IMG/VR virus record: IMGVR_UViG_3300017746_000002 | Coordinates: 59,270-123,269 of that record | Length of the DNA stretch: 64,000 nt | Origin: a virus | Reading direction: 5' to 3' (one strand) | Shown: in pieces, positions 2,703-50,807 of the stretch | Numbering within the stretch: the first letter of the stretch is position 1 | Layout: each line of letters begins with the position of its first letter | The notes under the pieces: model-generated | The model's database searches: none | Told to the model about the DNA's origin: nothing | What the model saw: the letters and a program-made list of their open reading frames with translations, nothing else | Made by a program: the position numbers and the translations under genes

Positions 2703-5700
2703 CTAAACTCCAAATATCCAATCTCTTAAAGCTTTCTTACTTCTTGCTAGCTCTTTTTTTCTATCACAGGAAGAACAACCTACTTCATTACCATATTTTA
2801 CTTCTGTAGTATTTTCTATTTCTGTTTCTTCATCCTTATTATTAGTCATATTAGAACGTAACGGTGTAGAAGATGCTGAACCTTGTCCCATATATTGTTT
2901 AATACAATTAAGCATTTGATTTGTATTATCTTTAAAGCCCATATCGTTACATGCTGTTCTTGCATTTTGCATTGTCATTTGTTCTGTAGCTTTATTAGCA
3001 TTAAGATCATCAGGATTATAAAATGTGTTCATATGATTCTGAGCATCATAGTAGTAATTAGGATTCTCCATATTTAATGCATATAACTTATCTGCATTAT
3101 CCATTCTTTCTACTTGTGTATCTACAATGTTTGCATTATCTGCAGCCATTGTATTATCAAAATTATTTAATGCTGTTGCTACTCTTGTGTTATATTCATC
3201 TCTATTAGCTGAATTTGTAGCCATTGCGTTATTTAATATTTGAGACTTTCTTGCTTCACTGTTGTCAAAGATCTTAATGTTTGTATTTGCTACATCAGAA
3301 ATACCTTTATTCATCTTATCACTAATTTGTCCCATATAGAATGAAGCATTTGCAGGATCAGCTTTTGCTAACTGTTGTGCCATAGCTAAGTTAGCTTGTA
3401 TCATAGCTTGAGGATCTTGATATGCTACATCAGGAAGAACAGGATCTACATTTTGCCTAGTAGGCATATATAAATTTCTATCCCACTTTTGACCAATAGC
3501 ATTTTGTAGTCTAAGATCATCCTGTGGGAAAGTCATATAAGGAGGAATTTCTCTATCTTCTGGTGTTTCAGGTTTTGTTTTACAACTACAAGTATCTAAA
3601 TCAAATTCTTGTCCTTTACTTAAACATTCAGCAGCTATTCTTTTTTGTTCTGCTTCATCACATTTTATATCTGTAATAATTTCTTCTTCATGTACTTCAT
3701 TAGTAGCAGAACTATATTGTCCAGCAGATGCCATTCCTATTATACCATCAAGATCTGACATTGGTAAACCAGTTCTTTCATCTATGTGTCTTCCACCTTT
3801 ATGCTTTCCTCCTTTTAAATCTAAAGTAATATTACCAAAAAATGCATCTGCTTGATCTAAATCTGTTTCTGTACCTTTTAGATCTTGCATTGCTGTAAAC
3901 ATTCCTTGGAACATTTTAGCATTTTGTGCATAGGTATCACCTTCACAATCACCCCAACCAAACTCTTCACATATAGCTTTATATCCTCCTGATTTAAAGT
4001 CAGTTGGGTTATAACCTGCATGTTTAGCTTGGAGAAGTTTATCATTCATATCCATATATGCTGTAAACAACTCTTCTTCTGATTTACCTGATACTGGTTG
4101 ATTAGCTACTATTCTTTTTAAATCTTTAACACTAAGATCACCAAGCTTCTTTCCATCTTTAATAGATTTTTTTATTGCCTCTATACCACCTGCATTTAAA
4201 ACAACATCATCCCATTGTTTTTCAAGAGCCCTATAACCTTCAACCCATGCAGTTCTAACATCTGCAAAATCTTCACCCATAACATGATTATAGAATTCTT
4301 GGTGTGCAGCTCTACCTGCTTCTCTACCTTTATATTTATCTGAATCATGTGCATTCTTATGATTACAATCATCACCTGTACATATAGGTTGTCCTTTTTG
4401 CATTTGTGGTAGTTCCATGCCATCTCTTGCCATCATCATACCTGCGCCTTGCATAGCAGGATTAGAACCAGTATACATTGAAGGATCTGCAATCTGCACA
4501 TTTGGCATAGATTGATCTAAGTCCATTATTGAACCTGCTAATACATCTTTTCTTTGAACACTTCTCATTTGAAGCTCAACGTCTCTCATTTGTGCTTGGA
4601 GATTATTTATTTGTTTTTCAAACTCCTCTTGCGCTTTCTTTTCTTTAAACATATGAGGATTTGCTTGATGATACTTTATAGCTGCAGAATGCTCTTGCTG
4701 CATCATTTCTAATTGTGAACCAAGAGATCTATACATAGGGTTACTTGTATATGATGGAGTTAATGGATCTAACTCAATCTCATTTGATCTACCCATAGAT
4801 ATACCCATATTATCTTGTCCCCCATAAACAAATCTTCTTAGTGAACCACCTCTACTCATTCCTGGTAGTCCAAGAGGATTTTGATCTCTTACATATCCTT
4901 CAGGAACTCCCATTGTAGGAACCATTGGTTGACCTGTTTCAACACCCATTTGTCCAAATAGTGGATCTTTAAAGCCAGCCCCTAAATCTCTATCTCCATG
5001 TATTGCATCCCATTCAGCTTTTATATTGTTAGTTGATTCAAACATAGCTTCTGATCTAGCATCTGGTCCACCAGTATTTCCACCTCCTTGCATTTTGGGC
5101 ATATTACCATAAGGCATGTTAGGTAAATTTTCATGACCTGGCATGATTCTTGTGTCTGTATCAGGAGCTTTCATTTTGTCAAGAGCTTTAGTCTTATAGC
5201 TCTCATACATAAATTTAACTTCTTTTATATCTTTTAATCTATATGCAAATCTCCACTCATCATATGTACATAGTTGATTCTTACATTTTGTAGCTAAATC
5301 AAATTCAACCTTAACTTCTGGTTCTTCTTGTAAAGCTTTACCTACTCCTGCACCAGCAACTGCACCAGCTGATTGAGCAGGCACTTCTCCTTGAGTTTGA
5401 TAAGGCATTAAGTCTCCACCATACTTCATACCAGGACCTTTATAATTTTTATTTGTATCAGCTGCATGTTTCATTGCTGCACTAGGTGGAGGATTTCCAT
5501 ATGCTGGACATGGTGGATGATCATCTTCTGCTGAATTATCCTGTGGCGTATTCTCAACTGGAGCAACACTGTAAGTAGATTTTTTAAATCCACCAAATAA
5601 TAACTTATCTAACTTTGTTGGATTGTTTGGCATACCACCCGTTACACCACCAGCTGCCATTTGTGGAGGAACCATCATACCTTGTGCTTGCATATCAGTA

Positions 5701-6383
5701 GGAGGTTGAGGTGGCATCATACCTTGAGGAGGCATTCCTTGAGCCATACCTTGTTGTGGTTGTTGCTCTGGATTCTTTTCAGCATTAATCTGATCTATCT
5801 TTTGTTGAAATTGTTGAGGGTCTACACCTTTAGCCATTAAATATGGAAAAGCAGCTAATGGTAAACCATTCTCAAAATCTTTTTTAGATTCTTGGATAAA
5901 TGCTATCTGAGATAACATTATCTTATTTTTATTAATCATCTGTTCTGCAGTTTCAACTGCAATCTTATCAGATGTTTCATCTTCTAATGTTTCTATATAT
6001 TTATTTAAAGGAAATTTCTTAGCAGCTTTAGCAGGAGTAATTCTTTTCTTTTGTTCAATTCCTAAAGATTTCATTTCATCTTTAGTTAAAAGCATTCCTC
6101 TTGTGTCAGAGTAAATAAAACTTTGGTCTGGTAAACTTAAAGGAGTACCTCCTTCATTATGTCTTTTACCTCCTATGTTATATAATTCAAATACTCCATC
6201 TCCTGACGTGTCAGTTAATGCTACTTCACCTTTTTCTGCTTCTAAATTAGCTGCTTCTCTATCAACAGGCTTTAATGTATTGCTAGAAGTAGCACCACCA
6301 GCAGCATATGTTTTTATAACTTTACCGTTTCTTACAGTAAAACCTTTGGGTAATGAATTTTTATTTATTTTTATTTTTGCCAT
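2703..6383 (-). CDS. Putative virion cargo protein, 1226 aa
   Basis: N-terminal NLEAEKGE...GGKRHNEGG...FIYSD block typical of crAss-like cargo proteins; many xxGG motifs; position after muzzle. Confidence 0.7.
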   Translation of the reverse strand: MAKIKINKNSLPKGFTVRNGKVIKTYAAGGATSSNTLKPVDREAANLEAEKGEVALTDTSGDGVFELYNIGGKRHNEGGTPLSLPDQSFIYSDTRGMLLTKDEMKSLGIEQKKRITPAKAAKKFPLNKYIETLEDETSDKIAVETAEQMINKNKIMLSQIAFIQESKKDFENGLPLAAFPYLMAKGVDPQQFQQKIDQINAEKNPEQQPQQGMAQGMPPQGMMPPQPPTDMQAQGMMVPPQMAAGGVTGGMPNNPTKLDKLLFGGFKKSTYSVAPVENTPQDNSAEDDHPPCPAYGNPPPSAAMKHAADTNKNYKGPGMKYGGDLMPYQTQGEVPAQSAGAVAGAGVGKALQEEPEVKVEFDLATKCKNQLCTYDEWRFAYRLKDIKEVKFMYESYKTKALDKMKAPDTDTRIMPGHENLPNMPYGNMPKMQGGGNTGGPDARSEAMFESTNNIKAEWDAIHGDRDLGAGFKDPLFGQMGVETGQPMVPTMGVPEGYVRDQNPLGLPGMSRGGSLRRFVYGGQDNMGISMGRSNEIELDPLTPSYTSNPMYRSLGSQLEMMQQEHSAAIKYHQANPHMFKEKKAQEEFEKQINNLQAQMRDVELQMRSVQRKDVLAGSIMDLDQSMPNVQIADPSMYTGSNPAMQGAGMMMARDGMELPQMQKGQPICTGDDCNHKNAHDSDKYKGREAGRAAHQEFYNHVMGEDFADVRTAWVEGYRALEKQWDDVVLNAGGIEAIKKSIKDGKKLGDLSVKDLKRIVANQPVSGKSEEELFTAYMDMNDKLLQAKHAGYNPTDFKSGGYKAICEEFGWGDCEGDTYAQNAKMFQGMFTAMQDLKGTETDLDQADAFFGNITLDLKGGKHKGGRHIDERTGLPMSDLDGIIGMASAGQYSSATNEVHEEEIITDIKCDEAEQKRIAAECLSKGQEFDLDTCSCKTKPETPEDREIPPYMTFPQDDLRLQNAIGQKWDRNLYMPTRQNVDPVLPDVAYQDPQAMIQANLAMAQQLAKADPANASFYMGQISDKMNKGISDVANTNIKIFDNSEARKSQILNNAMATNSANRDEYNTRVATALNNFDNTMAADNANIVDTQVERMDNADKLYALNMENPNYYYDAQNHMNTFYNPDDLNANKATEQMTMQNARTACNDMGFKDNTNQMLNCIKQYMGQGSASSTPLRSNMTNNKDEETEIENTTEVKYGNEVGCSSCDRKKELARSKKALRDWIFGV

Positions 6384-6385
6384 AA

Positions 6386-9300
6386 TTATATAATTTCTAT
6401 ATCAGCACCTGCTTTTATTAGTTCTTGTAATAATTCATAATCTATTTCTACTTCAGTTCCATACTTTGCTACCTTATCTATTTTAGGTTCATCTTTTTTC
6501 TTAGCTATAGTAGAAGGTGCAGGTTTTTCTGTTTTTGGTAGAGTAGTTTCTTCTGCTTTAGCAATTAAAGCACTTGGACTTTTACCGTCCTTTTTATCTG
6601 GAGTTACGGCATCAGCAACTTGTGTAGTCATACTTCTACCATCAGTAACACCTGCATATTCAGCGGCATCCTTTGCTACTGAAGCCGCACCTACTGCTAT
6701 TCCAGCTCCAGGTATCATTGAGGCAGCATTAATTGCCATATTTTCTGTATGCTTCATTGCTCCCTCTGTATCTCCTTCATAAGCAGAATAACCAGCTCTA
6801 GCACCAGATGTAGCTGTATTAACAGCATCCACAACATTACCTACAATAGGAACTGTACCTGCTGCTGACATAGCTGTTTGTGCATAATCTAAACCTTTAT
6901 TTATAGGAGTTTTAAAATCAGTTTCTTCATACCAATTTTTTGCTTTATCCCACCATCCGTCTTTTGCCATTGGTAAATGACCACCATAAGCCATTTTAGC
7001 CATTATTTGTTTTTGATATGCAATAACTTCAGGGCTATAACCTATCTCTACATTATAAGGATTAGATCCTGTAAACTCAGCTAGTGCTGCATAGTTAACA
7101 TTATCTACAACCGGTTGTGCCATACCCTGTCCACCCATTTGCATTATTAATGGAGCCTTCATATTATTACCAGAATAGATTTCATCTACTTTCTCATTAG
7201 TAAAGCTATCTCCACTATTAACATCATGTATTCCTTGTGAAGATTCCTGAACCATAAATTGAGATTCAGCATCAGTATTTTCTGTTTCAGCCTTTGTTTG
7301 AGCAGCATCATTTGCCCATCCTTCTAAAACAGCATTACCAAAGTCTGCCCATTTAGTTACAGCTCCTGATACATCACCATATGTATTTATAGCTCTATCT
7401 ACTATACCTGTTTTAGTATTAGCTTTTACTCTATTAGCAATATTACCATAACTTGAGTCAACTACTCCTGAATCAGCAACAGTAGTCTCATCCATTTCAT
7501 TCATTTCTTCTTCAGTCATGTTTGCTTCTTCCTCATCAGTAGTACCGTCACCTTCTGGACTTCCATCTGGTGGTGGAGTTGCATTTGCGTCAGGATTATT
7601 TGCATCATTGTTAGCATTTTCATTTGTTTCATCTACAGGAACTTCTTTCTTTTCTGCATTATTATCTTTTGGAGGATCACTAGGACCATCAGATTTATTT
7701 TTATTATCCTTATCTTTTTCTCCTTCATCTTGATAGAAAGGTAGTGCACCTCCATTTCTGTAAAAGTTTAACTTGTCTGCACGTTCTTGATCATCTTGCA
7801 TTAATAATTTATGTAACCATTCTCTATTTAATTGTAACTTTCCTGCTGGACCTAAATTGCTTTGATGATTTTGATCTTGTCCTATAACGTTTCTGTACAT
7901 CCAACTATTAGCTAAATCATTTTCAATACGTAAACTATCCCTAGTTATTGCATTTTGTAATTCATTAGCAGTAAAATTCCCTGTATATGGAACAACTGAT
8001 GTTCTTGGAAAATTAGGAGTGTACTCTAAAAAGTCATGTACTTTTTCACCTTTATCTTGATATTTGTCAAGTTGTTTTTGACCACCGTATACAAACATTT
8101 CTAATCCCATACTAGCTTCTTCTCTTTCTTTTCTTAATCTATTTTTTCTTTCCTGATTTCCTTCTTGAGTTTTAATAACTTTTGTAGCACCATTAGTATA
8201 TTTAATTGTTGTAGTACCATCACCATTATCAACTCTACTTTCTTCTATTAAGCCACTAGGATTATCATTTCCATCGTCATTATTATTATTATTATCTTCT
8301 TCTCTCTTTTCTCTCTTTATTTCTTCACTTGATTTTTTTATGACTTTCTTATTATCAGTATAATCATTTTCTGGATCATAATCTTCAATTTGTAAATTTG
8401 ACATACCATCATCCATTATAACATTAGGATCTGCTTCAGGTCCTGTTCTTACTAAACTTGTTACATCAGCATCAGGATTAACTAATATATCAGTTACACT
8501 ATAATCTTTAGTTTTATCTCTTGCTTTATCAAACTCTGTTCTATCATTTTCTGAATCAAAAGCTCTAGTTTTTGTTACTGTTTTAGTTACTGTTTTTGGA
8601 TTTTCCTCACTTTCTGGTTCATCAGGATTGAAATTTGGATTATCTTCTGTAACTTCTTCTTCATATTCTACATCATCATAAGTTACATTTCCTGTTACAC
8701 GGTCCATTGTTTGTCTAGAAGCAACATTAGTATTGTCTAAATGACCTTTTTCATTATATTCAGTAATTAAATTATCTCTATGATCTTGGAACTCATTAAA
8801 TCTTCTAGAAGTATGCATTCCTTGTGTGCCTATAACATCAGATAGTTTCATGTCTTTATCACCAGACTCAATAAACTTTTGTAAATTAGCATCATCCCAA
8901 TATAACTGTGCATCATTTGCATTACCAATCTTACTTGTATCAAGAGTGGTTTGTTTAAAGTCTGCTTTTGTATAAGGTTTGCCTGTTTTAGGATTTATTG
9001 ACTGTCTTCCAAATCCTTTTATTGCTTGTCCTGTAGAACCAATTGCATCAGCTAAAAGACCCCATTTAGATGTTGGAGATAATTCATAATCAGGAGTTCC
9101 TTTTTTTGTTCCTTGTCCTAAATTGTGAGAATTAACAACATCCTCCATTTCTTTTTTACTAATCTTACCATTTTGATAATCTTGTATAGCTTTTTGCTTA
9201 TCAGTTTCTGAAGACTCTTCTACTTTTTCTATACATGTACATGTAGCTGGATCTACTTTAAGTCCTTTCTTAGCACATTCAAAATATACAGATTTTTCAC

Positions 9301-9784
9301 AACCTTCACCTTCAGGACTACCATCACCTTCTCCATCATTATCTTCTGCATTCTCACTTATCTGTTCACCACATGTGCTTTTAGTAGGACTACAACTTCC
9401 AGAAGAAAAATATTCTTCTCCTGCTCTTTCCCATCCTTCTGGACATATACATTTATTATCTACAGACTCATCAGTATAGTCTCCACCTCTCGTACCATCA
9501 GTTTCCTCACCTTCAGTGTTCTCTTCACTTGGAGTACCTTTTAAATATTCTTGATATTGTTCTTGTGCATTTGCACCCTTTCTATTTACTGGATCTTGTA
9601 GTACCCATTCTTTAAAGTCTAGTTTCTTATCAACAGTTTCTTCCTCTTCCACTGTTTCTTCAATAGGACCTTCAGTCTGATACCATGGTAATGCACCACC
9701 ATTACGCATAAGATATTGATACTGATCCAAGTATGGATAAACGTCAAAAGTTTGATTTTTTATATTTTTTTTCTTTTTTGCCAT
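6386..9784 (-). CDS. Acidic low-complexity putative cargo protein with xxGG motifs and a pre-toxin-TG-like segment, 1132 aa
   Basis: Long ORF; RNGGALPxYQ twice; C-terminal AAGTVPIVGNVVDAVN...AASMIPGAG. Confidence 0.65.
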   Translation of the reverse strand: MAKKKKNIKNQTFDVYPYLDQYQYLMRNGGALPWYQTEGPIEETVEEEETVDKKLDFKEWVLQDPVNRKGANAQEQYQEYLKGTPSEENTEGEETDGTRGGDYTDESVDNKCICPEGWERAGEEYFSSGSCSPTKSTCGEQISENAEDNDGEGDGSPEGEGCEKSVYFECAKKGLKVDPATCTCIEKVEESSETDKQKAIQDYQNGKISKKEMEDVVNSHNLGQGTKKGTPDYELSPTSKWGLLADAIGSTGQAIKGFGRQSINPKTGKPYTKADFKQTTLDTSKIGNANDAQLYWDDANLQKFIESGDKDMKLSDVIGTQGMHTSRRFNEFQDHRDNLITEYNEKGHLDNTNVASRQTMDRVTGNVTYDDVEYEEEVTEDNPNFNPDEPESEENPKTVTKTVTKTRAFDSENDRTEFDKARDKTKDYSVTDILVNPDADVTSLVRTGPEADPNVIMDDGMSNLQIEDYDPENDYTDNKKVIKKSSEEIKREKREEDNNNNNDDGNDNPSGLIEESRVDNGDGTTTIKYTNGATKVIKTQEGNQERKNRLRKEREEASMGLEMFVYGGQKQLDKYQDKGEKVHDFLEYTPNFPRTSVVPYTGNFTANELQNAITRDSLRIENDLANSWMYRNVIGQDQNHQSNLGPAGKLQLNREWLHKLLMQDDQERADKLNFYRNGGALPFYQDEGEKDKDNKNKSDGPSDPPKDNNAEKKEVPVDETNENANNDANNPDANATPPPDGSPEGDGTTDEEEANMTEEEMNEMDETTVADSGVVDSSYGNIANRVKANTKTGIVDRAINTYGDVSGAVTKWADFGNAVLEGWANDAAQTKAETENTDAESQFMVQESSQGIHDVNSGDSFTNEKVDEIYSGNNMKAPLIMQMGGQGMAQPVVDNVNYAALAEFTGSNPYNVEIGYSPEVIAYQKQIMAKMAYGGHLPMAKDGWWDKAKNWYEETDFKTPINKGLDYAQTAMSAAGTVPIVGNVVDAVNTATSGARAGYSAYEGDTEGAMKHTENMAINAASMIPGAGIAVGAASVAKDAAEYAGVTDGRSMTTQVADAVTPDKKDGKSPSALIAKAEETTLPKTEKPAPSTIAKKKDEPKIDKVAKYGTEVEIDYELLQELIKAGADIEII

Positions 9785-9792
9785 TTTATTTC

Positions 9793-9813
9793 ATTACATA
9801 TATAATATACTAA
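9793..9813 (-). promoter_or_regulatory. Putative late promoter (TTAGTATATTATATATGTAAT)
   Basis: 21-bp exact copy at 40881-40901; core GTATATTAT recurs upstream of other late genes. Confidence 0.65.
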
Positions 9814-9829
9814 AAATCAAGCACATTAA

Positions 9830-11548
9830 CTAACTTTTAGTTAGTGACTTCATGTACTCTACTGTATCTAAACCTGCTTTTTTAGAATCTTGATAATAAA
9901 CTCTATTAAGTTTATCATATATTCTTTTTAACTTTTTTTGATATGGTGTACCTTCTGCAGCACCACTTACGTGTGCCATATACAATGCTATCTGGTCATC
10001 TATAGGAATAACTTTATCATCTCCAAGTGTTACGTTTTTTACATTTGTATTTACATCAAGATCTTCAAATGTTATTTCTGGAGCAGAAGGAGGAGGTGTA
10101 GTTAATGCTTCTACATTAGGATCTGTTACTTCTTCATTAGGTATCATTCCTAGTGCGCTTAGATGTTTTAATCCTGAAGGTGATAATTTATCTCCGTTTC
10201 TATATTTTTTTATAAGTTTCTTTGTTAATTCATGAGCTCTTTGTTGATCATGTATTTGTTGAGCAATATCAATTATTTGAAAATTACCTGATCCATCTGC
10301 ATCATCTTTATCATAATACACTCTATCATCTATATCTTTATGTTTATAGTTTACATAAGGTAAGTTTCTTCCTTTATCAAAGTCTTTTTTAATAGTATAG
10401 TTACCTTGAGGTGTTTCAATCTTTTTTTCAGAACCCATTTGAAACTTAGGTAAGAAAGCACCATTACGCATCATATCTGCAATTACACCATCTTGGTTTT
10501 TAAGAGCAAGCTTTTCTTTATTGTAAGGAGATTGTTTAACAGAGCCACCATACTTAGCCATCATAGTATTACTACCATCATCTATTTCATCATTAGATGT
10601 AAATGTATTCATCATATCAACAACTTGATTATCATCAAACTGCTCTAATAATTGTTTATCTTTTATAAACTTATCTGGATTTTCTTTTATATAATCTATA
10701 TGTGATTGGTCAAACATAAAGTCTTCCTCAAAATTATATAAACCTGCTTTCCATAACTCATACCTTGTTGTATCTATGTCAGATTTAATTTCATAGCTTC
10801 TTGTATCATGAGGTATTTGTAAATTATTATCAGACCAAAGAAAATCACTTCCTTTCTCTCTAGTGATCTCTCTTTCACCCTCAGTCATTAAAAACTCTTG
10901 TGCAACGTTATCTTTAGTATTAGGATGATTAGCACCTAATGCATGAGAATATTCATTAACAAGAATACTATTAAATGGATCATAAGATAATTCATTATCT
11001 TCTGCCATTGTTACAGCTTGTCCTGGGTTTACTTTAACTATAGGATTTATATTACCTTCATCTTTATAATTAGGTCTTTTATAGCTAGATTGTAATCTAT
11101 CAAATTTCTCCTGTAGATTCATCATAGTGAATATATTAGCATCTTCACTATAATCCCTAGCATATATCTCTGCCCATTCTTCTTCTCCACTAAAGTCAAC
11201 TTCTGTATCTTCTAATCTTTTTAGTTTACCATCTCTTACTTTTTTCCATTCTTCTTCACCATGTAAATCTATTGCTCTACGTTTAAATAAATCACTATTT
11301 AAGTAAGCTGTAAAATAATCTTTGACTTCTGAACCTTCCTGAGCCATAGGTATTTCCCTTACCATATTTGTATCAAACTTATGAAGACCTGAGTTAGGAC
11401 CTAGAATAACATTATTAGCAAGTAAAGGCATGCTTACATCTGTCATATCTATAATTCCATCTGGTGTATGAATATCTAAGTATGGTCTATCCTTATAAGG
11501 AGAGTCATCTTTATATCCTTGTTTTGATATATCTTTTTGATCTTCCAT
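9830..11548 (-). CDS. Putative cargo protein with degenerate zincin-like module, 572 aa
   Basis: ILVNEYSHALG...HDTRSYEIKSD; MAQEG, MAKYGG and MRNGAFLPKFQMG motifs. Confidence 0.6.
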   Translation of the reverse strand: MEDQKDISKQGYKDDSPYKDRPYLDIHTPDGIIDMTDVSMPLLANNVILGPNSGLHKFDTNMVREIPMAQEGSEVKDYFTAYLNSDLFKRRAIDLHGEEEWKKVRDGKLKRLEDTEVDFSGEEEWAEIYARDYSEDANIFTMMNLQEKFDRLQSSYKRPNYKDEGNINPIVKVNPGQAVTMAEDNELSYDPFNSILVNEYSHALGANHPNTKDNVAQEFLMTEGEREITREKGSDFLWSDNNLQIPHDTRSYEIKSDIDTTRYELWKAGLYNFEEDFMFDQSHIDYIKENPDKFIKDKQLLEQFDDNQVVDMMNTFTSNDEIDDGSNTMMAKYGGSVKQSPYNKEKLALKNQDGVIADMMRNGAFLPKFQMGSEKKIETPQGNYTIKKDFDKGRNLPYVNYKHKDIDDRVYYDKDDADGSGNFQIIDIAQQIHDQQRAHELTKKLIKKYRNGDKLSPSGLKHLSALGMIPNEEVTDPNVEALTTPPPSAPEITFEDLDVNTNVKNVTLGDDKVIPIDDQIALYMAHVSGAAEGTPYQKKLKRIYDKLNRVYYQDSKKAGLDTVEYMKSLTKS

Positions 11549-14500
11549 TATCTCATTGAAATATTTAACTTAGTATTATTTAATCTTAATAACATTTTTC
11601 TATTTTCAGATTTAACTCTTCTTAGTAAGATGTGATTATAGTAATGTCTAAATTTCTTTCTTTGTGTTTGTGCTTTATTATAATTTAAATTAGCAGCATT
11701 AAGATTTCTTATATATCCATTCCATTGTGTATTAAACACTGTTTGTTGAGCTGCTGAAAATTCTCCTCTATCATTTGTAATATCCCAGAACTGGTTAAAT
11801 CTATATTTTTGTTCTTCTTTACTATATAATATATCTATAAAGCCTCCACCAATTATTGGGAATGTAGATGCTAATACAGGATTATTTTTAGGTGTAATGT
11901 TTAATCTTAATAATCCAGATACTTGTTCTGTATTATATATTATTGCTTCATCAAAATTCCAATCTAAATCATGGAATCTATCTTTACTTTCATTTTGATA
12001 TACATATGATTCTAACTGATATTCTAAACTTCTTATAGTTGTAACACTTTGACCACTATGTTCTATTAAGTCAACTTCCCACGGGTAGTCTATACCATAA
12101 TAATTAGCATATAAATCAGTTCTTGTATTGTGTCTCCATATAGAAGATCCTTGTATTTGAGCTCTACAATTTTTACAACTTGCATTACAAAACCCAGGAT
12201 CAATATATGTTAAACCATTTGGTGATCCATTAGAATCATATTCATAATCAAATAACTCTTGTGCAGTAAGACAAGGTGTACCATCATCCCATGATGTGTA
12301 CGCACCGTTTGATTGTTCACATTGATTTCTAAATGTTCCTAAACTGTTATTACTACCATTACCAGTACAACCACAATTAGATTGACCACATACAGTATAT
12401 TGATAATTACCAAAAGCATTTTGACCACAAGGTAAAACTAAATCATATCCTGTTGAGCAAACTTGACCATTAGTTAAAACTGAATCAACACAAGCAGAAG
12501 TACCTACACCAGCATCTGGAGTCATATTTATAAGAAGCAGATTTGTTAATCTTGGTACTGTAATTTGAATATCTTCACAACACTCTTCTTCAACTGGATC
12601 CCATGTATAGCCAGGAGGACAATTAATTTCTCCTTCTTTAGTTGTTAAAAAATGATTTATACTATTAAATGTTAAATCAGGATGCCAATCATGAAATGAA
12701 ATCCATGCTTTAGATTTAGGATCATAGCTAACAGTCCATGAAGCATCTTCAAAGAAACTAGAATCATTTAATTGTATTGGTGATTTATTAGGAGCTGCTT
12801 TACTACAACCAGGACCGGATATTCCAGATAAACAATCAAGATTTACATAAAAACCTCCTTCACAATCATCAAAACAAATACAATCAGTTGTTGGTTCATA
12901 ATCTTTTTTACTAAAATATATAATATCATTCATAGGATCATATACTGACTGTACACCTATTCCTGTAACTGGATTATCAGCAACTGAAGGACAATCTTCT
13001 ACATTAGGTAATGCAGATATTAATCTTGATGGTAAATATTTATTAAACCACCATTTCATTCCTTGATCAGATATAGCTGATAGACCTTTTGAACCATATT
13101 GAAATATTTTTCCTTGTGCTTGAGATACATAAAATAATCCCATAGGTGTATTAATAACACTTCTTGCGCTTTCACATGAACCATACTCATGTGATAAATC
13201 TGAGTTTGCTACATTTTGAAATGCTTGACTAAATAAACCTCCGTCACCAATAATAAGTTTAGTACCACCTTTGTCCATATTTAATGCGTCTACACCTTGA
13301 AACATTTGTGGAGATATTGTTGGAAATAATATTAATGCACCTGTTTTATTAATAGGTTTAATTGTATTAACTGTAGATTTAAAATCTCTAAAGTTTTTAC
13401 TAAGGAATATTCTCCAAAAGTCTTTATTAGCTTCTTTCTTTTGTTGTTTAAGTTTCTTTAATGTTACACCACCTGTTGGTAAAGAATATATTAATCTCTT
13501 AGGAAACTTTGTTAAACATGTCTCTGAAACATAAGGGTCATACCATCTAGGTTGTATTTCACCAAAAGATGTATTCCAAAATCTTTTTTGATTTAATGAT
13601 TTATCATATTTATAATAATTATCTACATCTTGAATTTTAGCATCAAACATAGTATTTATATCAGTATAATCTAAATAGTCATAATGACGTGTAGTTATAC
13701 TATCAGAGTAATCTCTATGTGCTACATTTATTTCAGATTCAACAAAGAAATCTTGTACACCATTGTTATGTGTATACATATAATGTTCAGTAACAACAAA
13801 CACACCACCACTATTATCTGTATCTGTAGCAGCTTCATAAGGTGGATCAGGAGTTTCATAATCTACATTATCAAAACTTTGAGGAATAGGAGTACCACCT
13901 GATATATTAATTTGAAAATCAGCTCTACTTTGGCCTTCATAACCTGTTGATGTACCATCACCACCAATATATGAAAATAATCCTCCTTTGCTTCCTGAAT
14001 TACCTCCTTGTATTGTGTGTATATTATACTTAAGTGGGAATGTTGAACAAAGAGTTGATGTTCTACTTGTACCGCCATGTACTATTGTTACAGTATCAAA
14101 ATTTTGTTTAGGTAGTAGTTGATTAACATTAGTTGTTGAACCACCACTAGGTATTGGATTAGGAGTTACATTTCCAGGTGGTTTTAACCATGAGTATCTG
14201 TTATCAACTACATATTCAAAACCTCCAGTATTCCAATTATATACTGCAGCTAAACCAAATACAGAAGCTTCTAATGACATAGTTTGATTTACATATCCTG
14301 GTTTTTCAGTACCAGCACTTCCTCCTTCTATACTACTTCCAAAATTTTGGGCATTTGGAGTTCCATCACAACCTCCATTAATTGCATTATTTTGATAATG
14401 TCTATCAGCTTGACCTCCTATTCCATTAACCTTAAAAAAATTTTTATCAGTTAAAGGTCCGCTTATTGCACTACCCGCTCCATTTTGAAGTTCACCTCTT

Positions 14501-17500
14501 TTATATTCTCCACTTATTACACCTTGCACATCTCTAACATCTGTTGGGTCATCTGGATGTGTTATTGTTATAACATCTGTAACACCATTAAAAGAAACTA
14601 CATTCTGAGTTGCAGATTTTATATTAACATTAATATTTACTACTCCCGTTAACTTAAGAACAGAATAATTTTGATGCCATTTATATATAGGATCACCATT
14701 AGCATCTGTAACAGTAGGCATTGTACCATTTGCTTGACCACCTGTTCCTAATACATTTCCTGATTGTGTCCAAGCTTTTGCTTGATCATTACATGTAGTT
14801 GCTTGGAATGTTATATATGAATCTACCCAAGCAGCACCACTAAGAGCTCCTGTATAAACAGCATTTGCATTTGCATAATTATTAAATAGATTACCATTAT
14901 TAAGAGGCGGAAGTGTAGAATCTGGTTGTATACAAGATGGTAAACAAGGATTAGAACCTGTATAACACGGGCCCAGTGTATTCCAACAATCATTACATGT
15001 ACAGGATACTCCATCACCATCTTCAGGAAGTTCCCATGCACCATTTGCCCATGTATTAGCTGTTTCAATTACATGAGGTGTATAAAGTCCTGGACCTCCA
15101 GCACCAGGTGTAGAATTAGTATTTATACTATCAATAAGTAATTCATTTGTAGTATCATAACTTGCTGTTATTCCACCTGTAGGAGAATTATTAGGATCAA
15201 AATTACCTGCTCCTGAAAATGTAGCGCTACTTCCTTCACAAACAATTGCACCAGGTCCATCAAGATGGTATAAATCTCCAGGAGTATGTCCTCTCCAGTC
15301 AAAAGTAAGATCAGTAATAGGTTTAATATACTCATCCATTCTAAACTTATTAGAATCTAACCAGTATCTTGGATAAGGAACATTAGGATAATTCTTATAA
15401 TCCCAAGCAATTCCGTCTGGTTCACCATCTTTTAGAAAGTCCCAGAAAAAAGGCATACTAGTTTTTTCAGTATATCTGTTTATATATACATCTCCACCCC
15501 AATGAACTTCTGACCATCCACCATTAGTAGTAATTGTTGTTCCAGCAACTAAAGAATCATGACTAAAATAATTACAATCACCACCTGCAGGTTGCATTAA
15601 TATATTATCTATTTGTCCATATTGGTTATCTATATTTACTTTTAGTGCTGCATAATTTACTGCAATAGGTTTACATGTTTGTACTCCTGGTGAATACCAT
15701 GTAACTGTTGCACCTGTTCCATCATCACGTGTAGGATTTTGGCAATCATTACATAGACCATCACCAATAGTAAACTTAGAAAAATCATTACCATTAGGAT
15801 CTAAAAGACCACCATAAGTACCATCTATTACTGTTCCACCTGGACCTGTACTTCCAGCTCCAGTTAAATTTTGTGTGCTTAATACTACTGTTGATTGTCT
15901 TCTTAAATTATTAATCATCACATTTCCTGGAAATGCAGAAAACGCTTGTTTTATATATCTTGCATCTTCAACATTTCTTCTCCATGCAGTATCATCCATA
16001 CCAAAAGGTTGCATTATATCATTAGAAACATCTGCACCACTCCATGTAAGAGGAGGTAATATAACTTCTTCATTATAAAAACCGTGAGATATATACTTAT
16101 ATACATGATCTTGATATGATACAAGATTTCTAATGAGATCTAATATTTTATCACCACCCGTAGCAACATAATTAAGGAATGCAAATATACCTGTAATCAT
16201 TGCCATAAGTCTTGGAACACCTGTAAAGTCTGTCCCTCTCATTGTTATTGTCTTTTCACTACCTGATGCAGCACCTGTTAATCCTGTTGCTCCACTTTCA
16301 GCTGCGTTAAATGCTGGTATTGCTATTTGTTTTGCATCACGTCCAAAACCTAAAACAGTAGCACCATCAAGAACCATATCTAAAGCTCCTTTTGCAATAT
16401 ATGTTAAACCCATACCTACTAAGTGAAATACAGAATTGGCAAGAGATAAACCATTACCTACAATAGGAAATGGAGATAAAGCTGTACCAGAACCTAATGC
16501 TTTTACATCAGACATACCAGCAGGGTTTTGTCCTGCACCTGTTATTGATAAATCTTCTGGTCCTCTCATTTGGTTAATTGCATAACCAACACCAATAATA
16601 GCTGCTACAAAAACAGCTCTTTTCTTTATAAGTTTAAATCTAGGATGTTCTTCTGATCTTTTAAAGTTTCCTAATTGTTTTCCTCTTATTGTTTTATATA
16701 ATTTTATTTCACTAGGATTTAAAAACATTCTTGAAAACATTGTATCTGGAGAATGGAATGTAAAATAATCACGTGTTATTTCACCTAGCCCTCTAGTATC
16801 TGTAGATGAATGTTTAGTTGGATCTACTAAGAAGTTATCTTCAATACCATCATACCAGGGTCTGTTTGAAATTAACTCTCCTTGATTTCTATTTAAAAGA
16901 TAAGGATCCGTATGTAAATCATTATATGGATAGTTAGGAAATACACCCCATGATCTATCAGCTTGTCTTGGTCCATCATCACTGTATAATTGACTTGTTG
17001 TAGTATCTCTTTCATAGGTAAACATATTTCTAATAATACCTTTTGCTAGAATAGATTTATTACCACTTCTACTTCCTGTTAATATTTCATAACCAACTAT
17101 CCCTGGAATAAGTGTTCCATTATTATCTACTGGTGGATATATGTTATCAAACTTAGCTCCTAGTATATTTATAAACTCTCCTGTTACACCATTAACTGTT
17201 GGACTTAAAAGTGCTGCATCAGTTCCTAGTAATGTTTCATCAGGAAACTTATGATGTCTAATTGGTTGACCACATAAGTCATGATTAGGTATTCCTGTAG
17301 TTGGATTTACAGTACCATAATTAGACCAAGCATGTTCACTAGAATTCCATCTTATAGGATCATGTGGATATAACTCTGTAGATTGCCAGTAACCCATATG
17401 ACCTTCACCCGTTTTAACACCGCCAAATTTTTCATCTTTTATATCACCAATATCTCCTGCTGCAATTGAGTTAGCTGTATTTATACCTTCAAAATAAAGT

Positions 17501-18774
17501 TCTTGAGAACCATTTGGAGCAATGTTAATTCCAGTTACATTAAGTGGATCATTTGTTTGTAAAGGAGGATTTGGAACATATCCCGGTAAGTTTGAAGCAA
17601 CATCACCCGGTGGTTTACCTGGAATGTGATATGCTTTAGATTTATCACCTGTATTATATATCCATCTTATAAAGAAAGCATACTGTTCATCCCTCATAAA
17701 AGAAGGCTTGTTACCTCCGTTTGTATAATATGTTGAAGGGTATCTCCATGACTCCCAATGAGCATGTATTAAGTTTGCTAATGGTTGATAATTAAAATCA
17801 AACTTTTCTGTAGGTTGTGATCTAATTAAATAATCATTAACAACATACATCCCATCTGATTTTTCATATACAGGATTTCTTACTATTAATGCTAGGTCAG
17901 TTAAAACTTCTAATCTACCATCAATATAATCAATGTTTATTGTTGTTTGTTCAGTGCTATAATATCCAACAATTCTTGTACTAATAGCATTGTGAGTTTT
18001 AAATCTTATTACAAGTTGAAAGTTATCAAAGTCTTTATCAAGATTACTAATATTAATATCTAATGAACCTGAAGGACCACTATGATTCCATAATGATTGT
18101 AAGTTTGATATACCAACATAATCACCTATAACTTGATTATCTAATGTATATGCAATAAAAGCTTGATATGTACCATTAACTAAAGATCCTCCTTCTTCTG
18201 CTTTTGATAATGTTATACAAGGTATATCCATGTAAGGAGCTAGTCTTATAGCATCACAATCTAAATCTGTAGTATATTGTACATCACATGGATCTATAAT
18301 AGGAGTAACAGGTTTATAAGGAACATTATCTAAATTTAAAACTCTTGAAGGGTTTAAAGCATCATCCCAATATACTAACCATTGACAATCATAATTTTCT
18401 TTTGAAACACCAACAATTAAATGATCAGTACTAAAGTTAAGACATCCGTCATTTACAATAGGTTTATACTCACATCTGCTGTCATCAAATCTACCAATTT
18501 CTGAATTTATATTATCAGTAGAAAAAATAGCCCATATATCTCCATATAAATGAATACCGCCTATTATTTTATAAGGTATAGTGACACATTGTAAATTTGC
18601 AGGTTCATTTCCAATAACACCTACATCACCATCAATAGAATTATTTATAGCATTACGTGCATGATTCCAATTTTGTTTGGACATGTAACTTGCATCAGAA
18701 TCTTTTATCATCCCTTTCGGGGTTAAATTAGTTTCTGTTGTAGAAGTTGGTTGATTTTGTTTTTTCTTTGCCAT
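11548..18774 (-). CDS. Tail stabilisation / muzzle protein with large insertions, 2408 aa
   Basis: N-terminal KGMIKD...NHARNAIN...GNE and C-terminal SWTVSYDP..KAWISFHDWHP beta-propeller-type motifs; follows ring genes. Confidence 0.75.
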   Translation of the reverse strand: MAKKKQNQPTSTTETNLTPKGMIKDSDASYMSKQNWNHARNAINNSIDGDVGVIGNEPANLQCVTIPYKIIGGIHLYGDIWAIFSTDNINSEIGRFDDSRCEYKPIVNDGCLNFSTDHLIVGVSKENYDCQWLVYWDDALNPSRVLNLDNVPYKPVTPIIDPCDVQYTTDLDCDAIRLAPYMDIPCITLSKAEEGGSLVNGTYQAFIAYTLDNQVIGDYVGISNLQSLWNHSGPSGSLDINISNLDKDFDNFQLVIRFKTHNAISTRIVGYYSTEQTTINIDYIDGRLEVLTDLALIVRNPVYEKSDGMYVVNDYLIRSQPTEKFDFNYQPLANLIHAHWESWRYPSTYYTNGGNKPSFMRDEQYAFFIRWIYNTGDKSKAYHIPGKPPGDVASNLPGYVPNPPLQTNDPLNVTGINIAPNGSQELYFEGINTANSIAAGDIGDIKDEKFGGVKTGEGHMGYWQSTELYPHDPIRWNSSEHAWSNYGTVNPTTGIPNHDLCGQPIRHHKFPDETLLGTDAALLSPTVNGVTGEFINILGAKFDNIYPPVDNNGTLIPGIVGYEILTGSRSGNKSILAKGIIRNMFTYERDTTTSQLYSDDGPRQADRSWGVFPNYPYNDLHTDPYLLNRNQGELISNRPWYDGIEDNFLVDPTKHSSTDTRGLGEITRDYFTFHSPDTMFSRMFLNPSEIKLYKTIRGKQLGNFKRSEEHPRFKLIKKRAVFVAAIIGVGYAINQMRGPEDLSITGAGQNPAGMSDVKALGSGTALSPFPIVGNGLSLANSVFHLVGMGLTYIAKGALDMVLDGATVLGFGRDAKQIAIPAFNAAESGATGLTGAASGSEKTITMRGTDFTGVPRLMAMITGIFAFLNYVATGGDKILDLIRNLVSYQDHVYKYISHGFYNEEVILPPLTWSGADVSNDIMQPFGMDDTAWRRNVEDARYIKQAFSAFPGNVMINNLRRQSTVVLSTQNLTGAGSTGPGGTVIDGTYGGLLDPNGNDFSKFTIGDGLCNDCQNPTRDDGTGATVTWYSPGVQTCKPIAVNYAALKVNIDNQYGQIDNILMQPAGGDCNYFSHDSLVAGTTITTNGGWSEVHWGGDVYINRYTEKTSMPFFWDFLKDGEPDGIAWDYKNYPNVPYPRYWLDSNKFRMDEYIKPITDLTFDWRGHTPGDLYHLDGPGAIVCEGSSATFSGAGNFDPNNSPTGGITASYDTTNELLIDSINTNSTPGAGGPGLYTPHVIETANTWANGAWELPEDGDGVSCTCNDCWNTLGPCYTGSNPCLPSCIQPDSTLPPLNNGNLFNNYANANAVYTGALSGAAWVDSYITFQATTCNDQAKAWTQSGNVLGTGGQANGTMPTVTDANGDPIYKWHQNYSVLKLTGVVNINVNIKSATQNVVSFNGVTDVITITHPDDPTDVRDVQGVISGEYKRGELQNGAGSAISGPLTDKNFFKVNGIGGQADRHYQNNAINGGCDGTPNAQNFGSSIEGGSAGTEKPGYVNQTMSLEASVFGLAAVYNWNTGGFEYVVDNRYSWLKPPGNVTPNPIPSGGSTTNVNQLLPKQNFDTVTIVHGGTSRTSTLCSTFPLKYNIHTIQGGNSGSKGGLFSYIGGDGTSTGYEGQSRADFQINISGGTPIPQSFDNVDYETPDPPYEAATDTDNSGGVFVVTEHYMYTHNNGVQDFFVESEINVAHRDYSDSITTRHYDYLDYTDINTMFDAKIQDVDNYYKYDKSLNQKRFWNTSFGEIQPRWYDPYVSETCLTKFPKRLIYSLPTGGVTLKKLKQQKKEANKDFWRIFLSKNFRDFKSTVNTIKPINKTGALILFPTISPQMFQGVDALNMDKGGTKLIIGDGGLFSQAFQNVANSDLSHEYGSCESARSVINTPMGLFYVSQAQGKIFQYGSKGLSAISDQGMKWWFNKYLPSRLISALPNVEDCPSVADNPVTGIGVQSVYDPMNDIIYFSKKDYEPTTDCICFDDCEGGFYVNLDCLSGISGPGCSKAAPNKSPIQLNDSSFFEDASWTVSYDPKSKAWISFHDWHPDLTFNSINHFLTTKEGEINCPPGYTWDPVEEECCEDIQITVPRLTNLLLINMTPDAGVGTSACVDSVLTNGQVCSTGYDLVLPCGQNAFGNYQYTVCGQSNCGCTGNGSNNSLGTFRNQCEQSNGAYTSWDDGTPCLTAQELFDYEYDSNGSPNGLTYIDPGFCNASCKNCRAQIQGSSIWRHNTRTDLYANYYGIDYPWEVDLIEHSGQSVTTIRSLEYQLESYVYQNESKDRFHDLDWNFDEAIIYNTEQVSGLLRLNITPKNNPVLASTFPIIGGGFIDILYSKEEQKYRFNQFWDITNDRGEFSAAQQTVFNTQWNGYIRNLNAANLNYNKAQTQRKKFRHYYNHILLRRVKSENRKMLLRLNNTKLNISMR

Positions 18775-18776: not shown

Positions 18777-19685
18777 TTATCTATGTGGTGCAGTGCTTCT
18801 AAACATATCATAATAATTATGATACTGCGCTCTTCTGTTAACTTCCCATATTTTTCTATATTCAGCAAAGTTAGGTGTATTTACAAAACCTAATGCTGTA
18901 TTTCTAGCAGCTCTTAATTTCTGCTCAATCATTCCTATTTGATTAACCACATTTTCACCATCAAACATCATGTTTTCTAGTATTCTTTGTTTTAATGCAT
19001 ATTCATAATACTCATTACAATATGGATGATCAAGAGTTAAAAGTTTACCTGAACTATCTTCCATTGTTCCTTGATAATTTATATATACTTTTCCTGAATT
19101 AAAATTAGTTAATAAATAACCATCTTTAATTTCTGCTGTATCAGCAGCTCTTGTAGATAAGTTAGGACAATCACAATGTACACCCTGAAGACTAGATATT
19201 CTTAAAGGAAGAAATACTGAATATTCTCTCCATTGTTCTGGACCTACATATTGTAATACTACATATTGACTATTATATGTTGTTGTTCCCTTAGTTTTTG
19301 TTGGACATGTTTGTATTACACAAACGTCTTTACAGTCTTTAGGGTCAAGACACATATCACCTCCTCCTGGATCAGGAGTATATTTAGGTTGTGTAGTATC
19401 AACATGTGTTCCTGATGGTAATGTATTATTTACTTTATACTTTCCACATATTGATCCAAAATTAAGAACATTAAAGTTTGATGGAAGTTTAGCTTTTTTA
19501 TTTTCTACATCTAGTACTGCATCATTTGTTCTTTGTATTCTAAGACCTAAATCATAATTTACTCTTTGTACAACTTTAATTAATTGTTGAGGTTCAATAT
19601 GACCCTCAAGATTATAAGTTCTAAAATCTATCTTAACGTCTTCAAGAAGTTGGTCAAATGTCCTATATTTATGTGATACGCTCAT
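18777..19685 (-). CDS. Tail ring / tubular (adaptor) protein
   Basis: GYLLTNFNSGKVYINYQG...DHPY; directly upstream of the muzzle gene. Confidence 0.6.
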   Translation of the reverse strand: MSVSHKYRTFDQLLEDVKIDFRTYNLEGHIEPQQLIKVVQRVNYDLGLRIQRTNDAVLDVENKKAKLPSNFNVLNFGSICGKYKVNNTLPSGTHVDTTQPKYTPDPGGGDMCLDPKDCKDVCVIQTCPTKTKGTTTYNSQYVVLQYVGPEQWREYSVFLPLRISSLQGVHCDCPNLSTRAADTAEIKDGYLLTNFNSGKVYINYQGTMEDSSGKLLTLDHPYCNEYYEYALKQRILENMMFDGENVVNQIGMIEQKLRAARNTALGFVNTPNFAEYRKIWEVNRRAQYHNYYDMFRSTAPHR

Positions 19686-37775: not shown

Positions 37776-37812
37776 ACTTTAAATTTATTGGTTTAATAAT
37801 TATTAATTGGTT

Positions 37813-37848
37813 TAAAAGAAATAGGGAGGAGCACTAGGCTCCTCCTTC
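37813..37848 (-). terminator. Intrinsic terminator after MCP
   Basis: GGAGGAGC-ACTAG-GCTCCTCC 8-bp stem with T-rich tail on the minus strand. Confidence 0.75.
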
Positions 37849-37861
37849 TCTCATGTTGTTA

Positions 37862-39493: not shown

Positions 39494-39541
39494 TTTTTCA
39501 CTTTTTTTAGTTAATTAATAATTATTGTTGTTGTTCTACTT

Positions 39542-40855: not shown

Positions 40856-40880
40856 GTCTTTTGGTTTTAAATTATTGGTT

Positions 40881-40901
40881 ATTACATATATAATATACTA
40901 A
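40881..40901 (-). promoter_or_regulatory. Putative late promoter
   Basis: 21-bp identity with 9793-9813. Confidence 0.65.
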
Positions 40902-40967
40902 GATTTTTAGAATAAACCTTATAAATTTGATAGTTACTTGTAAATATTCTGCAGTATATAGCTAAGA

Positions 40968-43739: not shown

Positions 43740-43742
43740 ATT

Positions 43743-46313: not shown

Positions 46314-46335
46314 TTTATTGATTTTAAATTAGTTA

Positions 46336-47678: not shown

Positions 47679-47686
47679 TTTATTTA

Positions 47687-50736: not shown

Positions 50737-50807
50737 AGTATTATGTTTTTGGTTGCAAAGTTATAAACTATTTTATATAACTTCCTAATTATTATTCAAT
50801 TATTTTT

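Follow-up and report, generated by a model that had tools for sequence, protein, structure and literature searches.

Genes at the locus

The DNA analysed here, referred to as the window, is a stretch of 64,000 nucleotides that runs from base 59270 to base 123269 of a phage record of 123,269 bp (IMG/VR record IMGVR_UViG_3300017746_000002), and our subject is a short two-part peptide motif of roughly 15 residues that recurs in four large proteins encoded in it. Three of these lie behind the gene of a muzzle-position virion protein of 2408 amino acids (aa) at 11548-18774 (minus strand; PHROG virion structural protein), which comes after the ring genes, where crAss001 has its muzzle protein gp44, and which was used as a motif-free synteny anchor. 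They are cargo-position protein 1 (572 aa, 9830-11548), the first gene behind the muzzle gene, cargo-position protein 2 (1132 aa, 6386-9784) and cargo-position protein 3 (1226 aa, 2703-6383). The fourth motif protein (1789 aa, 50808-56177) is encoded away from this cluster. All four genes, and all motif copies located below, are on the minus strand, and none of the four proteins has a Pfam or PHROG family match.

The Crassvirales virion module is present, with crass-type capsid, ring 1 and ring 2, portal and terminase in conserved order. Pfam identified ring protein 1 (CrAss_Ring_1, 18777-19685), ring protein 2 (CrAss_Ring_2, 19685-20356) and the crass-type major capsid protein (37862-39493), the E-values of the module being 8.3e-32 for PF23898, 5.2e-18 for PF25702 and 1.5e-07 for PF24228, and PHROGs identified the portal (40968-43739) and the large terminase TerL (43856-46042), all on the minus strand. 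A scaffold-like protein of 437 aa (39542-40855, minus strand), with an acidic low-complexity N-terminal third, a basic C-terminus and no family match, is encoded between the portal and capsid genes.

The label 'cargo' is used because of the synteny with crAss001, that is, for genes behind the muzzle gene. Genes were found in this position right behind the muzzle gene here and in 80 related loci, which were chosen from 275 relatives of the muzzle-position protein in IMG/VR and retained for motif scans. The initial annotation of the window had taken the four proteins as putative cargo. By analogy, their position behind the ring and muzzle genes and the cell-wall-degrading and ADP-ribosyltransferase domains of their relatives make them plausible virion cargo or ejected proteins.

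A two-part motif confined to four proteins

The simple consensus of the motif is [KR]-Y-G-G-S-L-P-K-A-Q-x-G-x-E, with about 30 bits, and the core obtained from 125 unique copies is [KFAL]-[KR]-Y-G-G-[SD]-L-P-K-A-Q-x-G-x-E. The information resides in 11-14 positions (G 100%, Q 88%, L 86%, K 85%, G 85% and A 80%), and both flanks of these 125 copies hold less than 0.4 bit per position and are mildly enriched in M, K, Q and E. GG.LPKAQ is nearly invariant, and the ending Q-x-G-x-E is present in 29 of 114 in-register copies. The two parts, here called the N-half (as in MAKYGG) and the C-half (as in PKAQxGxE), are also found singly; for example, 'PKAQxGxE' is present in loci without the full form, and the half-motifs of the weaker loci mostly read Q-x-G-x-E.

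The four proteins contain about 19-20 distinct sites at a score of at least 6 bits, of which about 10 are full doublets and about 10 are half-motifs. The initial annotation had spoken of about 30 repeats, often doublets; the repetition is indeed far above chance, but the number of sites is lower. All 16 strings that it listed were found in the three ORFs (open reading frames) it had named. Among the short ones, TYAAGG, MAAGG and MAQEGSE are backed by orthologue alignment as decayed copies, MAAGG aligning with motif variants in relatives, whereas MQMGG, AKYGTE and VKYGNE cannot by themselves be distinguished from chance. The recurrence that it had noticed in 50808-56177 corresponds to a pair of strong sites plus one strong C-half, along with several weak sites.

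Of 161 six-frame ORFs of at least 60 aa, the four are the only ones matched by core regular expressions, and when five copies served as the seed of a profile, the next-ranked matches were six more copies in the same four proteins. The enrichment that the initial annotation had proposed to check with a motif hidden Markov model (HMM) was borne out by a non-circular HMM, built from 75 copies of related phages only. It gave 7 matches of at least 8 bits and 8 of at least 3 bits in the four proteins (4,758 aa), and the mean over 200 shuffles was 0.01 matches at 3 bits and none at 5 bits. By comparison, the rest of the 123-kb genome (61,940 aa in six-frame ORFs) yielded a single match of 7.6 bits, in a 59-aa ORF outside the window, and the next best score was 1.0 bit. 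The two halves were also scored separately by position-specific scoring matrices (PSSMs) made from the relatives only. At a threshold of 8 bits, the N-half was found 14 times in the four proteins (2.94 per 1000 aa) versus 9 times elsewhere (0.28), and the C-half 12 times (2.52 per 1000 aa) versus once (0.03); the corresponding shuffles had a mean of 1.15 (maximum 4) and of 0.87 (maximum 3), respectively. Per residue, the N-half is thus enriched about 10-fold and the C-half about 80-fold in the four proteins.

As initially noted, the motif is not found in the capsid, portal and ring proteins, and the muzzle-position protein also lacks it save for a look-alike in reversed order. The latter, LSKAEEGGSLV at about 18170-18210, near residue 191, reads as a C-half followed by an N-half (12.1 + 14.5 bits) and is probably due to chance.

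Identical residues share a codon in 60% of cases across the motif copies. Since the codons differ between copies, selection acts on the peptide, and a DNA-level repeat or recombination site was rejected on the same ground.

Motif copies in the individual proteins

In the 572-aa protein, the full motif MMRNGAFLPKFQMGSE (aa 358-377; 10418-10477) reaches 26.4 bits with the relatives-only HMM, and an N-half, MAKYGG (aa 330-335; 10544-10561), scores 16.9 bits with the N-half PSSM. The C-half MAQEGSE (aa 68-74; 11327-11347; C-half PSSM 13.2 bits) is a decayed full motif; in the same context, the homologue L063, which is 59% identical, has the full motif YQQGGSLPKAQDGKEVKDYF. The protein also contains a zincin-like NEYSH at 10943-10957, and NEY[SA]H replaces HExxH in it and in two homologues.

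Four full motifs were located in cargo-position protein 2. The one near the N-terminus, MRNGGALPWYQTEG (aa 24-42; 9659-9715), scores 8.2 bits with HMM m2 and 21.8 bits with m1; FVYGGQKQLDKYQDKGE (aa 561-581; 8042-8104) contains an insertion and scores 8.2 bits, its C-half 13.6 bits; and YRNGGALPFYQDEGE (aa 672-691; 7712-7771) scores 8.8 bits. The last one, MAYGGHLPMAKDG (aa 927-943; 6956-7006; HMM 2.7, N-half 12.5 and C-half 10.1 bits), is followed by a W-rich and Gly-zipper module, the Gly-zipper hydrophobic segment of this protein being at 6677-6739.

The N-terminal domain of cargo-position protein 3 (aa 36-215; 5739-6278) is the most conserved cargo module, with 55 related ORFs at 39-63% identity, and its AlphaFold2 (AF2) model has a mean pLDDT (predicted local distance difference test) of 77.5. 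Ahead of this domain lies the N-half TYAAGG (aa 25-30; 6294-6311), whose GG is invariant in 33 of 33 aligned sequences. M[KR]xGG stands at this position in the relatives, in fact at residues 25-30 of every homologue, and pLDDT is below 50 at residues 27-33. Further sites are the full motif MKYGGDLMPYQTQGE (aa 315-336; 5376-5441; 11.5 bits), two N-halves in MSRGGSLRRFVYGG (aa 507-525; 4809-4865; N-half PSSM 10.2 + 8.7 bits), the weak site MPKMQGGG (aa 428-435; 5079-5102; C-half 8.4 bits) and a variant full motif, MARDGMELPQMQKG (aa 651-664; 4392-4433; N-half 8.6 and C-half 11.7 bits), whose form matches MA[RK]YG.E[LM]PKAQ of the relatives.

The fourth motif protein has an N-terminal transmembrane (TM) segment (aa 16-42) and contains the full motifs LQDGGSLPKAQFG (aa 573-588; 54414-54461; 19.7 bits), followed by a W-rich and Gly-zipper module, and KKYGGQLQKAQNGTE (aa 1105-1125; 52803-52865; 22.3 bits). 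A C-half, MLPKYQSKGE (aa 1470-1482; 51732-51770; HMM 4.8, C-half PSSM 16.0 bits), lies ahead of a second Gly-zipper module, and the protein thus carries two copies of the W-rich and Gly-zipper module. In addition, the two edges of a conserved module roughly 70 aa long (aa 93-163) are marked. At its C-terminal edge is the degenerate motif KYGEGSWKAQGGTE (aa 159-172; 55662-55703), which was aligned to full motifs or C-halves of 14 relatives and around which pLDDT in the AF2 model is below 50 from aa 164 onward, the KAQGGTE part included. At its N-terminal edge is the C-half EIAQTGIE (aa 66-73; 55959-55982), which aligns with PMAQxGxE|VPKR of the relatives and also has pLDDT below 50. Outside the motif, this protein has a stretch ...ATIGHGH... 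at 52608-52628, which we take to be typical of phage GH24 lysozymes, with no match in Pfam.

Position of the motif at module borders

The positions of the motif coincide with module borders. The conserved module of about 70 aa is flanked by '...PMAQxGxE|VPKR...' and by '...GEGSWKPK' followed by the motif, and the motif stands immediately ahead of the W-rich and Gly-zipper modules, of the conserved domain of the 572-aa protein and, in relatives, of SLT domains. In both AF2 models the folded module is predicted with confidence and the motif-bearing flanks have pLDDT below 50. The initial annotation had placed the motif in low-complexity linkers between domains. This description is only partly right, as it fits the flanks of less than 0.4 bit, their mild richness in M, K, Q and E, and the low pLDDT in the two modelled contexts.

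Full motifs are not concentrated at gene ends: 3 of 95 are within 45 aa of the N-terminus and 0 of 95 within 45 aa of the C-terminus, with 4.3 expected for each. The splitting of genes at motifs was rejected because gene borders and motif copies do not coincide in these 95 copies.

The four proteins are mosaics, and according to blastp their modules are common to the post-muzzle proteins of relatives, those of the distant 50808-56177 included. The latter shares modules with the first post-muzzle protein of relatives; its residues 91-227 match residues 94-229 of the post-muzzle ORFs of about 20 relatives, where residues 91-227 are in stop-to-stop numbering, which runs 24 ahead of the ATG-based numbers given in the rest of this text. 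Some relatives carry a CxxC...CxxC zinc ribbon that separates the N-half from the C-half; in the form CxxC...CHKC it was seen in many first post-muzzle proteins (P0006 and P0067; L020, L021, L028 and L040 in alignment A4).

Distribution in relatives and databases

In the 80 related loci, all 101 matches of at least 10 bits and all 33 matches of 6-10 bits are on the gene strand, and in the 40 loci that were mapped every match falls in ORFs behind the muzzle homologue. At least one strong copy is present in 56 of the 80 loci, the remainder having half-motifs or nothing above 2 bits, and the number of copies per locus ranges from 0 to 6. HMM scans of the whole records of three complete relatives gave 4, 4 and 3 matches of at least 7.8 bits, all in two or three post-muzzle ORFs, and all others were at most 4.0 bits. 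The strict DNA pattern GG.LPKAQ had 0 matches in five complete relatives because their copies vary.

We then looked at the databases. The DNA pattern YGGxLPKAQ was found in 65 stretches among 2.9 million viral contigs; 64 of them are in frame in long ORFs, 60 have neighbours that resemble the window's family, and four of the five records checked encode a Crass-type capsid protein. A word-indexed protein search gave 131 proteins at E ≤10, with 64 of the 120 listed at E ≤0.001; none of these has an informative protein name, and the contigs that carry them are at most 123 kb long. The motif occurs once in 66 of these 120 proteins, twice in 33, three times in 17 and four times in 3. An exhaustive profile search of 1.84 billion representatives found 125 proteins at E ≤0.001, of which 25 were at ≤1e-10; most of the 125 carriers are 1000-3300 aa long and have 2-5 matched stretches. 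Against cultured phages, tblastn with one natural motif segment returned only chance matches in Pseudomonas phages (E = 3).

Among 38 motif-bearing relatives, 12 have SLT, LysM, YkuD, PG_binding_1, ART-PolyVal or ADPrib_exo_Tox domains and 26 match nothing. SLT, LysM, YkuD and PG_binding_1 account for nine of the 38, and such domains appear again in the database matches, where SET and further LysM-type domains are also seen. SET is fused to the motif proteins P0064 and P0069, and in P0151 a SET-like N-terminus, read by eye, is immediately followed by the motif. The multi-effector architecture of polyvalent proteins, in the sense of Iyer 2017, is thus seen in the relatives, with which the window proteins share modules. 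The string HExxH occurs in 57 of 246 fetched database proteins (for example, HEIEH in P0151, which has four motifs) and in none of the four window proteins. A stand-alone SET-domain gene is located in the virion gene block at L082:17987-18322 (minus strand).

The 59-aa ORF outside the window (genome 19212-19391, recorded as L081:19212-19391, minus strand) is very basic, consists mostly of three N-half-like repeats (MSYGNGG, MASYGHGGG and MYKRGGSL) and lies directly upstream of a holin-like gene with three TM segments (PF11351, E 4e-4). A similar ORF of 61 aa with four such repeats adjoins a membrane-like ORF in the relative G009 (6328-6537, minus strand). Possibly the 59-aa product is a small basic peptide that is packaged or processed.

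Comparison with crAss001 and phi14:2

In crAss001, the genes behind gp44 encode gp45 and gp46, the cargo proteins C1 and C2, which were detected in virions according to the available text of PMC10172136. The genes at the cargo position of phi14:2 are annotated as structural by tandem mass spectrometry. As in crAss001, the window genes lie right behind the muzzle gene and encode large, partly disordered proteins with Gly-zipper or TM segments. Unlike in crAss001, there is no sequence similarity (blastp and phmmer of the window proteins against crAss001 and phi14:2 proteins gave nothing at E ≤0.01), PF25725 has no match, and the full GG.LPKAQ is not found. The full motif was absent from 49 kb of crAss001 and 100 kb of phi14:2, where the best score was 1.7 bits. 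The initial annotation had proposed to test for the motif across the Crassvirales; as far as the scanned sequences go, the motif is specific to this lineage and not a general feature of the order.

The N-half has a counterpart in gp45. This protein (L150:21988-24516) contains four of the seven Phi-[YF]-G-G strings in 49 kb of crAss001 (shuffles 0.44, P = 0.0006), with GG at residues 209, 332, 427 and 562, and these strings are kept in 34 homologues where alignable. Two pieces of gp45 are ordered in the electron cryomicroscopy structure, residues 425-552 bound to the portal and residues 214-245 bound to the tail barrel, as given in the available text of PMC10172136. With these residue ranges, the portal-bound piece starts exactly at AFGGWLNTQGG and the tail-barrel piece directly behind SAYGGPLE; that is, ordered virion-bound pieces of a protein enriched in the N-half begin at such elements. 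The available text also treats gp45 as one chain spanning the portal (PMC10172136), which argues against cutting at the N-half elements in crAss001. Its account of the crAss001 cargo mentions no motif, and the text without its supplements has no words starting with cleav-, proteoly-, protease or scaffold.

We also compared the N-terminal domain of cargo-position protein 3 with the portal-bound domain of gp45 (7qog_M). The match is weak, with Z 4.9, a root-mean-square deviation of 4.3, 96 of 126 residues aligned, 19% identity and rank 37. A protein-language-model lead for this domain pointed to crAss_CARG1 (Atlas feature score 0.89). A six-frame HMM search of the phage's own genome with PF25725 (crAss_CARG1) had no match at E ≤10, none of 33 aligned homologues matches this family, and hhalign against crAss_CARG1 gave a probability below 1%. 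Foldseek had no match for the domain at E ≤0.001, and the VIA Z scores were all below 6. For the 70-aa module of 50808-56177, the best Z of the fold search was 2.5. The fold searches of these two modules returned no protease fold, which is no proof that none exists.

Other genes of the record

A gene at 20923-22104 (minus strand), within the tail gene block, resembles DNA-repair exonucleases/metallophosphatases (PHROG 704, 7.5e-45), and phi14:2 has a calcineurin-like phosphoesterase at the equivalent place. In the replication module, L081:6318-7478 (plus strand) combines a DUF2201_N putative metallopeptidase with a VWA-like domain and is the only peptidase-like Pfam match of the genome. Several giant ORFs have neither the motif nor a Pfam or PHROG match, namely those at 24065-33808 of the window (3247 aa, minus strand), at 42756-58529 of the genome (about 5258 aa) and at 37325-42754 of the genome (about 1810 aa), both on the minus strand. 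A PDB sequence search with the 3247-aa protein found no match. A virion RNA polymerase may be among these proteins.

A possible docking tag or processing site

The initial annotation had suggested a capsid-loading/ejection signal or a maturation-protease cleavage site, a proposal that is partly supported. We tentatively regard the motif as a short linear docking tag of cargo proteins of the ejected, polyvalent type, with a probability of roughly 0.38, and favour this reading over a protease site. The motif, itself disordered, would mark the N-terminal edge of successive modules and would be bound by a repeated component of the assembling particle, for which the portal wing, the inner wall of the tail barrel and the scaffold-like protein at 39542-40855 are candidates. 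Several low-affinity copies per chain would recruit the long cargo chains into the procapsid, and the bound chains would be kept in register for extrusion from N to C. We infer in this reading that the four proteins are in the virion, that a partner binds the motif, and who this partner may be. About 30 bits over 11-14 positions between flanks of less than 0.4 bit are characteristic of a peptide that a folded domain recognises; together with the multivalency and the disordered context, this information content suits a partner-bound peptide. The variable number and place of the motif (0-6 copies per locus, 1-4 per database protein) were counted for docking as multivalency. Its genome-wide exclusivity to post-muzzle genes in this genome and in three complete relatives was also counted for docking, as were the codon differences between copies and the weak match of the N-terminal domain of cargo-position protein 3 to the gp45 domain. 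By analogy, the enrichment of the N-half in gp45 and the starts of its ordered pieces offer a parallel in a solved virion that supports docking.

Several points weigh against a docking tag. The full motif is not in the 49 kb of crAss001 scanned, and the parallel with gp45 therefore concerns the N-half only. Other giant proteins (3247, 1124, about 5258 and about 1810 aa) are without the motif, which therefore is not a general loading route. Homology of the N-terminal domain of cargo-position protein 3 to crAss_CARG1 is supported neither by the Pfam HMM nor by hhalign, and its Z of 4.9 ranks 37 among generic helical matches. Finally, the C-half often reads G-x-E and conserved modules begin right behind the Glu, in the manner of a T4 or giant-phage protease site.

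This last point leads to a processing site, at which a phage protease would cut the polyproteins at or next to the motif, likeliest after the Glu of Q-x-G-x-E, and free the modules; the protease may be the zincin module of some carriers or an unrecognised prohead protease, and the motif may serve as a targeting element first. We consider this doubtful, though a serious candidate. The C-halves bracket modules, as seen for PMAQxGxE|VPKR in 14 of the 15 sequences aligned and, in the 572-aa protein, for MAQEGSE|VKDYF, and some genes have a leader of 25-30 aa ahead of the motif. G-x-E resembles the protease rules of phiKZ (S/A/G-X-E) and T4 (L/I-X-E). A similar rule, A-X-E, is given for the SPN3US prohead protease in the available part of PMC10052503, and zincin peptidases were proposed to process polyvalent proteins (Iyer et al., PMC5512222, available part). 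HExxH in 57 of 246 database proteins is above chance by estimate, not by a computed value, but the four window proteins are without HExxH and the zincin-like site of the 572-aa protein is NEYSH. Moreover, in the 123-kb genome Pfam and PHROGs detect neither a prohead protease nor another virion protease, and PF03420 (gp21 family, Peptidase_S77) has no match in it at E ≤10, although a divergent protease is possible. Q-x-G-x-E is present in just 29 of 114 in-register copies, 30 bits far exceed the need of known prohead protease sites, and the gene borders are off the motifs (3 of 95 near the N-terminus and 0 of 95 near the C-terminus, versus 4.3 expected each). Docking and cleavage could also coexist, by analogy with the capsid-targeting sequence of T4. 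An adenovirus-type cleavage site, (M/L/I)-X-G-G, was rejected, as its hydrophobic residue would be shifted by one position and no clan CE protease turned up in the genome with Pfam or PHROGs.

The remaining explanations appear less probable. It is unlikely that the motif acts after ejection, binding a periplasmic or outer-membrane host component or anchoring to peptidoglycan and thereby holding the extruded chain or drawing it in. The carriers among relatives do have the periplasm-acting SLT, LysM, YkuD and PG_binding_1 domains (9 of 38), the motif is often ahead of hydrophobic Gly-zipper modules, and its Lys is nearly invariant (85%), YkuD enzymes being able to link Lys to peptidoglycan; but the four window proteins are without a Pfam cell-wall domain, and the motif is also ahead of presumed cytoplasmic domains, ADP-ribosyltransferase and SET. 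A passive joint, that is, a flexible hinge or linker cap without a partner that is retained as modules shuffle with their junctions, would suit mosaic proteins with the same modules in other orders and genes, and a Gly- and Pro-rich motif at module borders. It is nevertheless quite improbable, because L, P, K, A and Q are invariant over 125 diverged copies with unconserved flanks, none of which a hinge needs, and because the differing codons leave no DNA-level recombination site. Least probable of all, to the point of being hard to credit, is a modification site with the motif Lys as substrate, for instance of a phage SET-domain methyltransferase. The SET-domain gene in the virion block of L082, the fusions P0064 and P0069 and the SET-like N-terminus ahead of the motif in P0151 (by eye) speak for it, but SET is more simply another injected effector, like the ADP-ribosyltransferases.

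The docking tag has a further and more speculative form, which is rather unlikely as a whole. Here the motif would be a modular address label, with one copy per cargo module, bound by a 12-fold component of the portal-tail channel; the chains would be pre-threaded in a fixed order, and the N-half Phi-Y-G-G would be an ancient core common to all Crassvirales, which the solved structure of crAss001 would already show.

Relation to known systems and implications

The capsid-targeting sequence of T4 is likewise a short peptide on injected proteins packed into the head, which both targets them and is cut after Glu. Unlike it, the window motif is mostly internal and repeated (3 of 95 copies near the N-terminus), whereas the T4 tag is single and N-terminal; moreover, no gp21-type protease was found here by the searches above, and the Glu is present in 29 of 114 copies. 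Encapsulin cargo-loading peptides are short, contain Gly and Leu, and direct cargo inside a shell of the HK97 fold, sometimes in several copies, but they are terminal, bind the shell protein and have another consensus, and the window motif is mostly internal. The T4 sequence of internal proteins is cited in the available part of PMC10052503. In giant phages, the prohead protease cuts ejected proteins and subunits of the virion RNA polymerase at small-x-Glu sites, and the C-half here is often G-x-E; however, those sites have about 3 informative positions versus 11-14 here, the cuts mostly remove N-terminal propeptides, and no homologue of the protease was found in this genome. Polyvalent proteins, as presented in the available part of PMC5512222, are also injected proteins of very large size with several domains, among them ART-PolyVal, SLT, LysM and zincin modules, and their processing has been proposed. 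In contrast to the proteins studied here, no conserved inter-domain peptide is described in that part, 'crAss' does not appear in it, and the window's own four proteins are without a Pfam family.

We found no published description of the motif in the literature on crassvirus cargo, polyvalent proteins and marine Crassvirales. What is new is the motif sequence, its repetition at module borders and the lineage; the kind is known, namely a short tag on packaged or injected proteins, as in T4 and encapsulins.

How crassviruses load, order and extrude a cargo of about 5 MDa through the tail is an open question according to the available text of PMC10172136, and a sharply defined peptide confined to these proteins makes this question testable. 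The motif also offers an easy way to recognise ejected polyvalent proteins by sequence in the genomes of uncultured phages, most of which have no family match. If the parallel of the N-half with gp45 holds, the finding reaches the abundant crassviruses of the gut, and if the address-label form is true, the peptide could be used to load foreign proteins into crassvirus particles.

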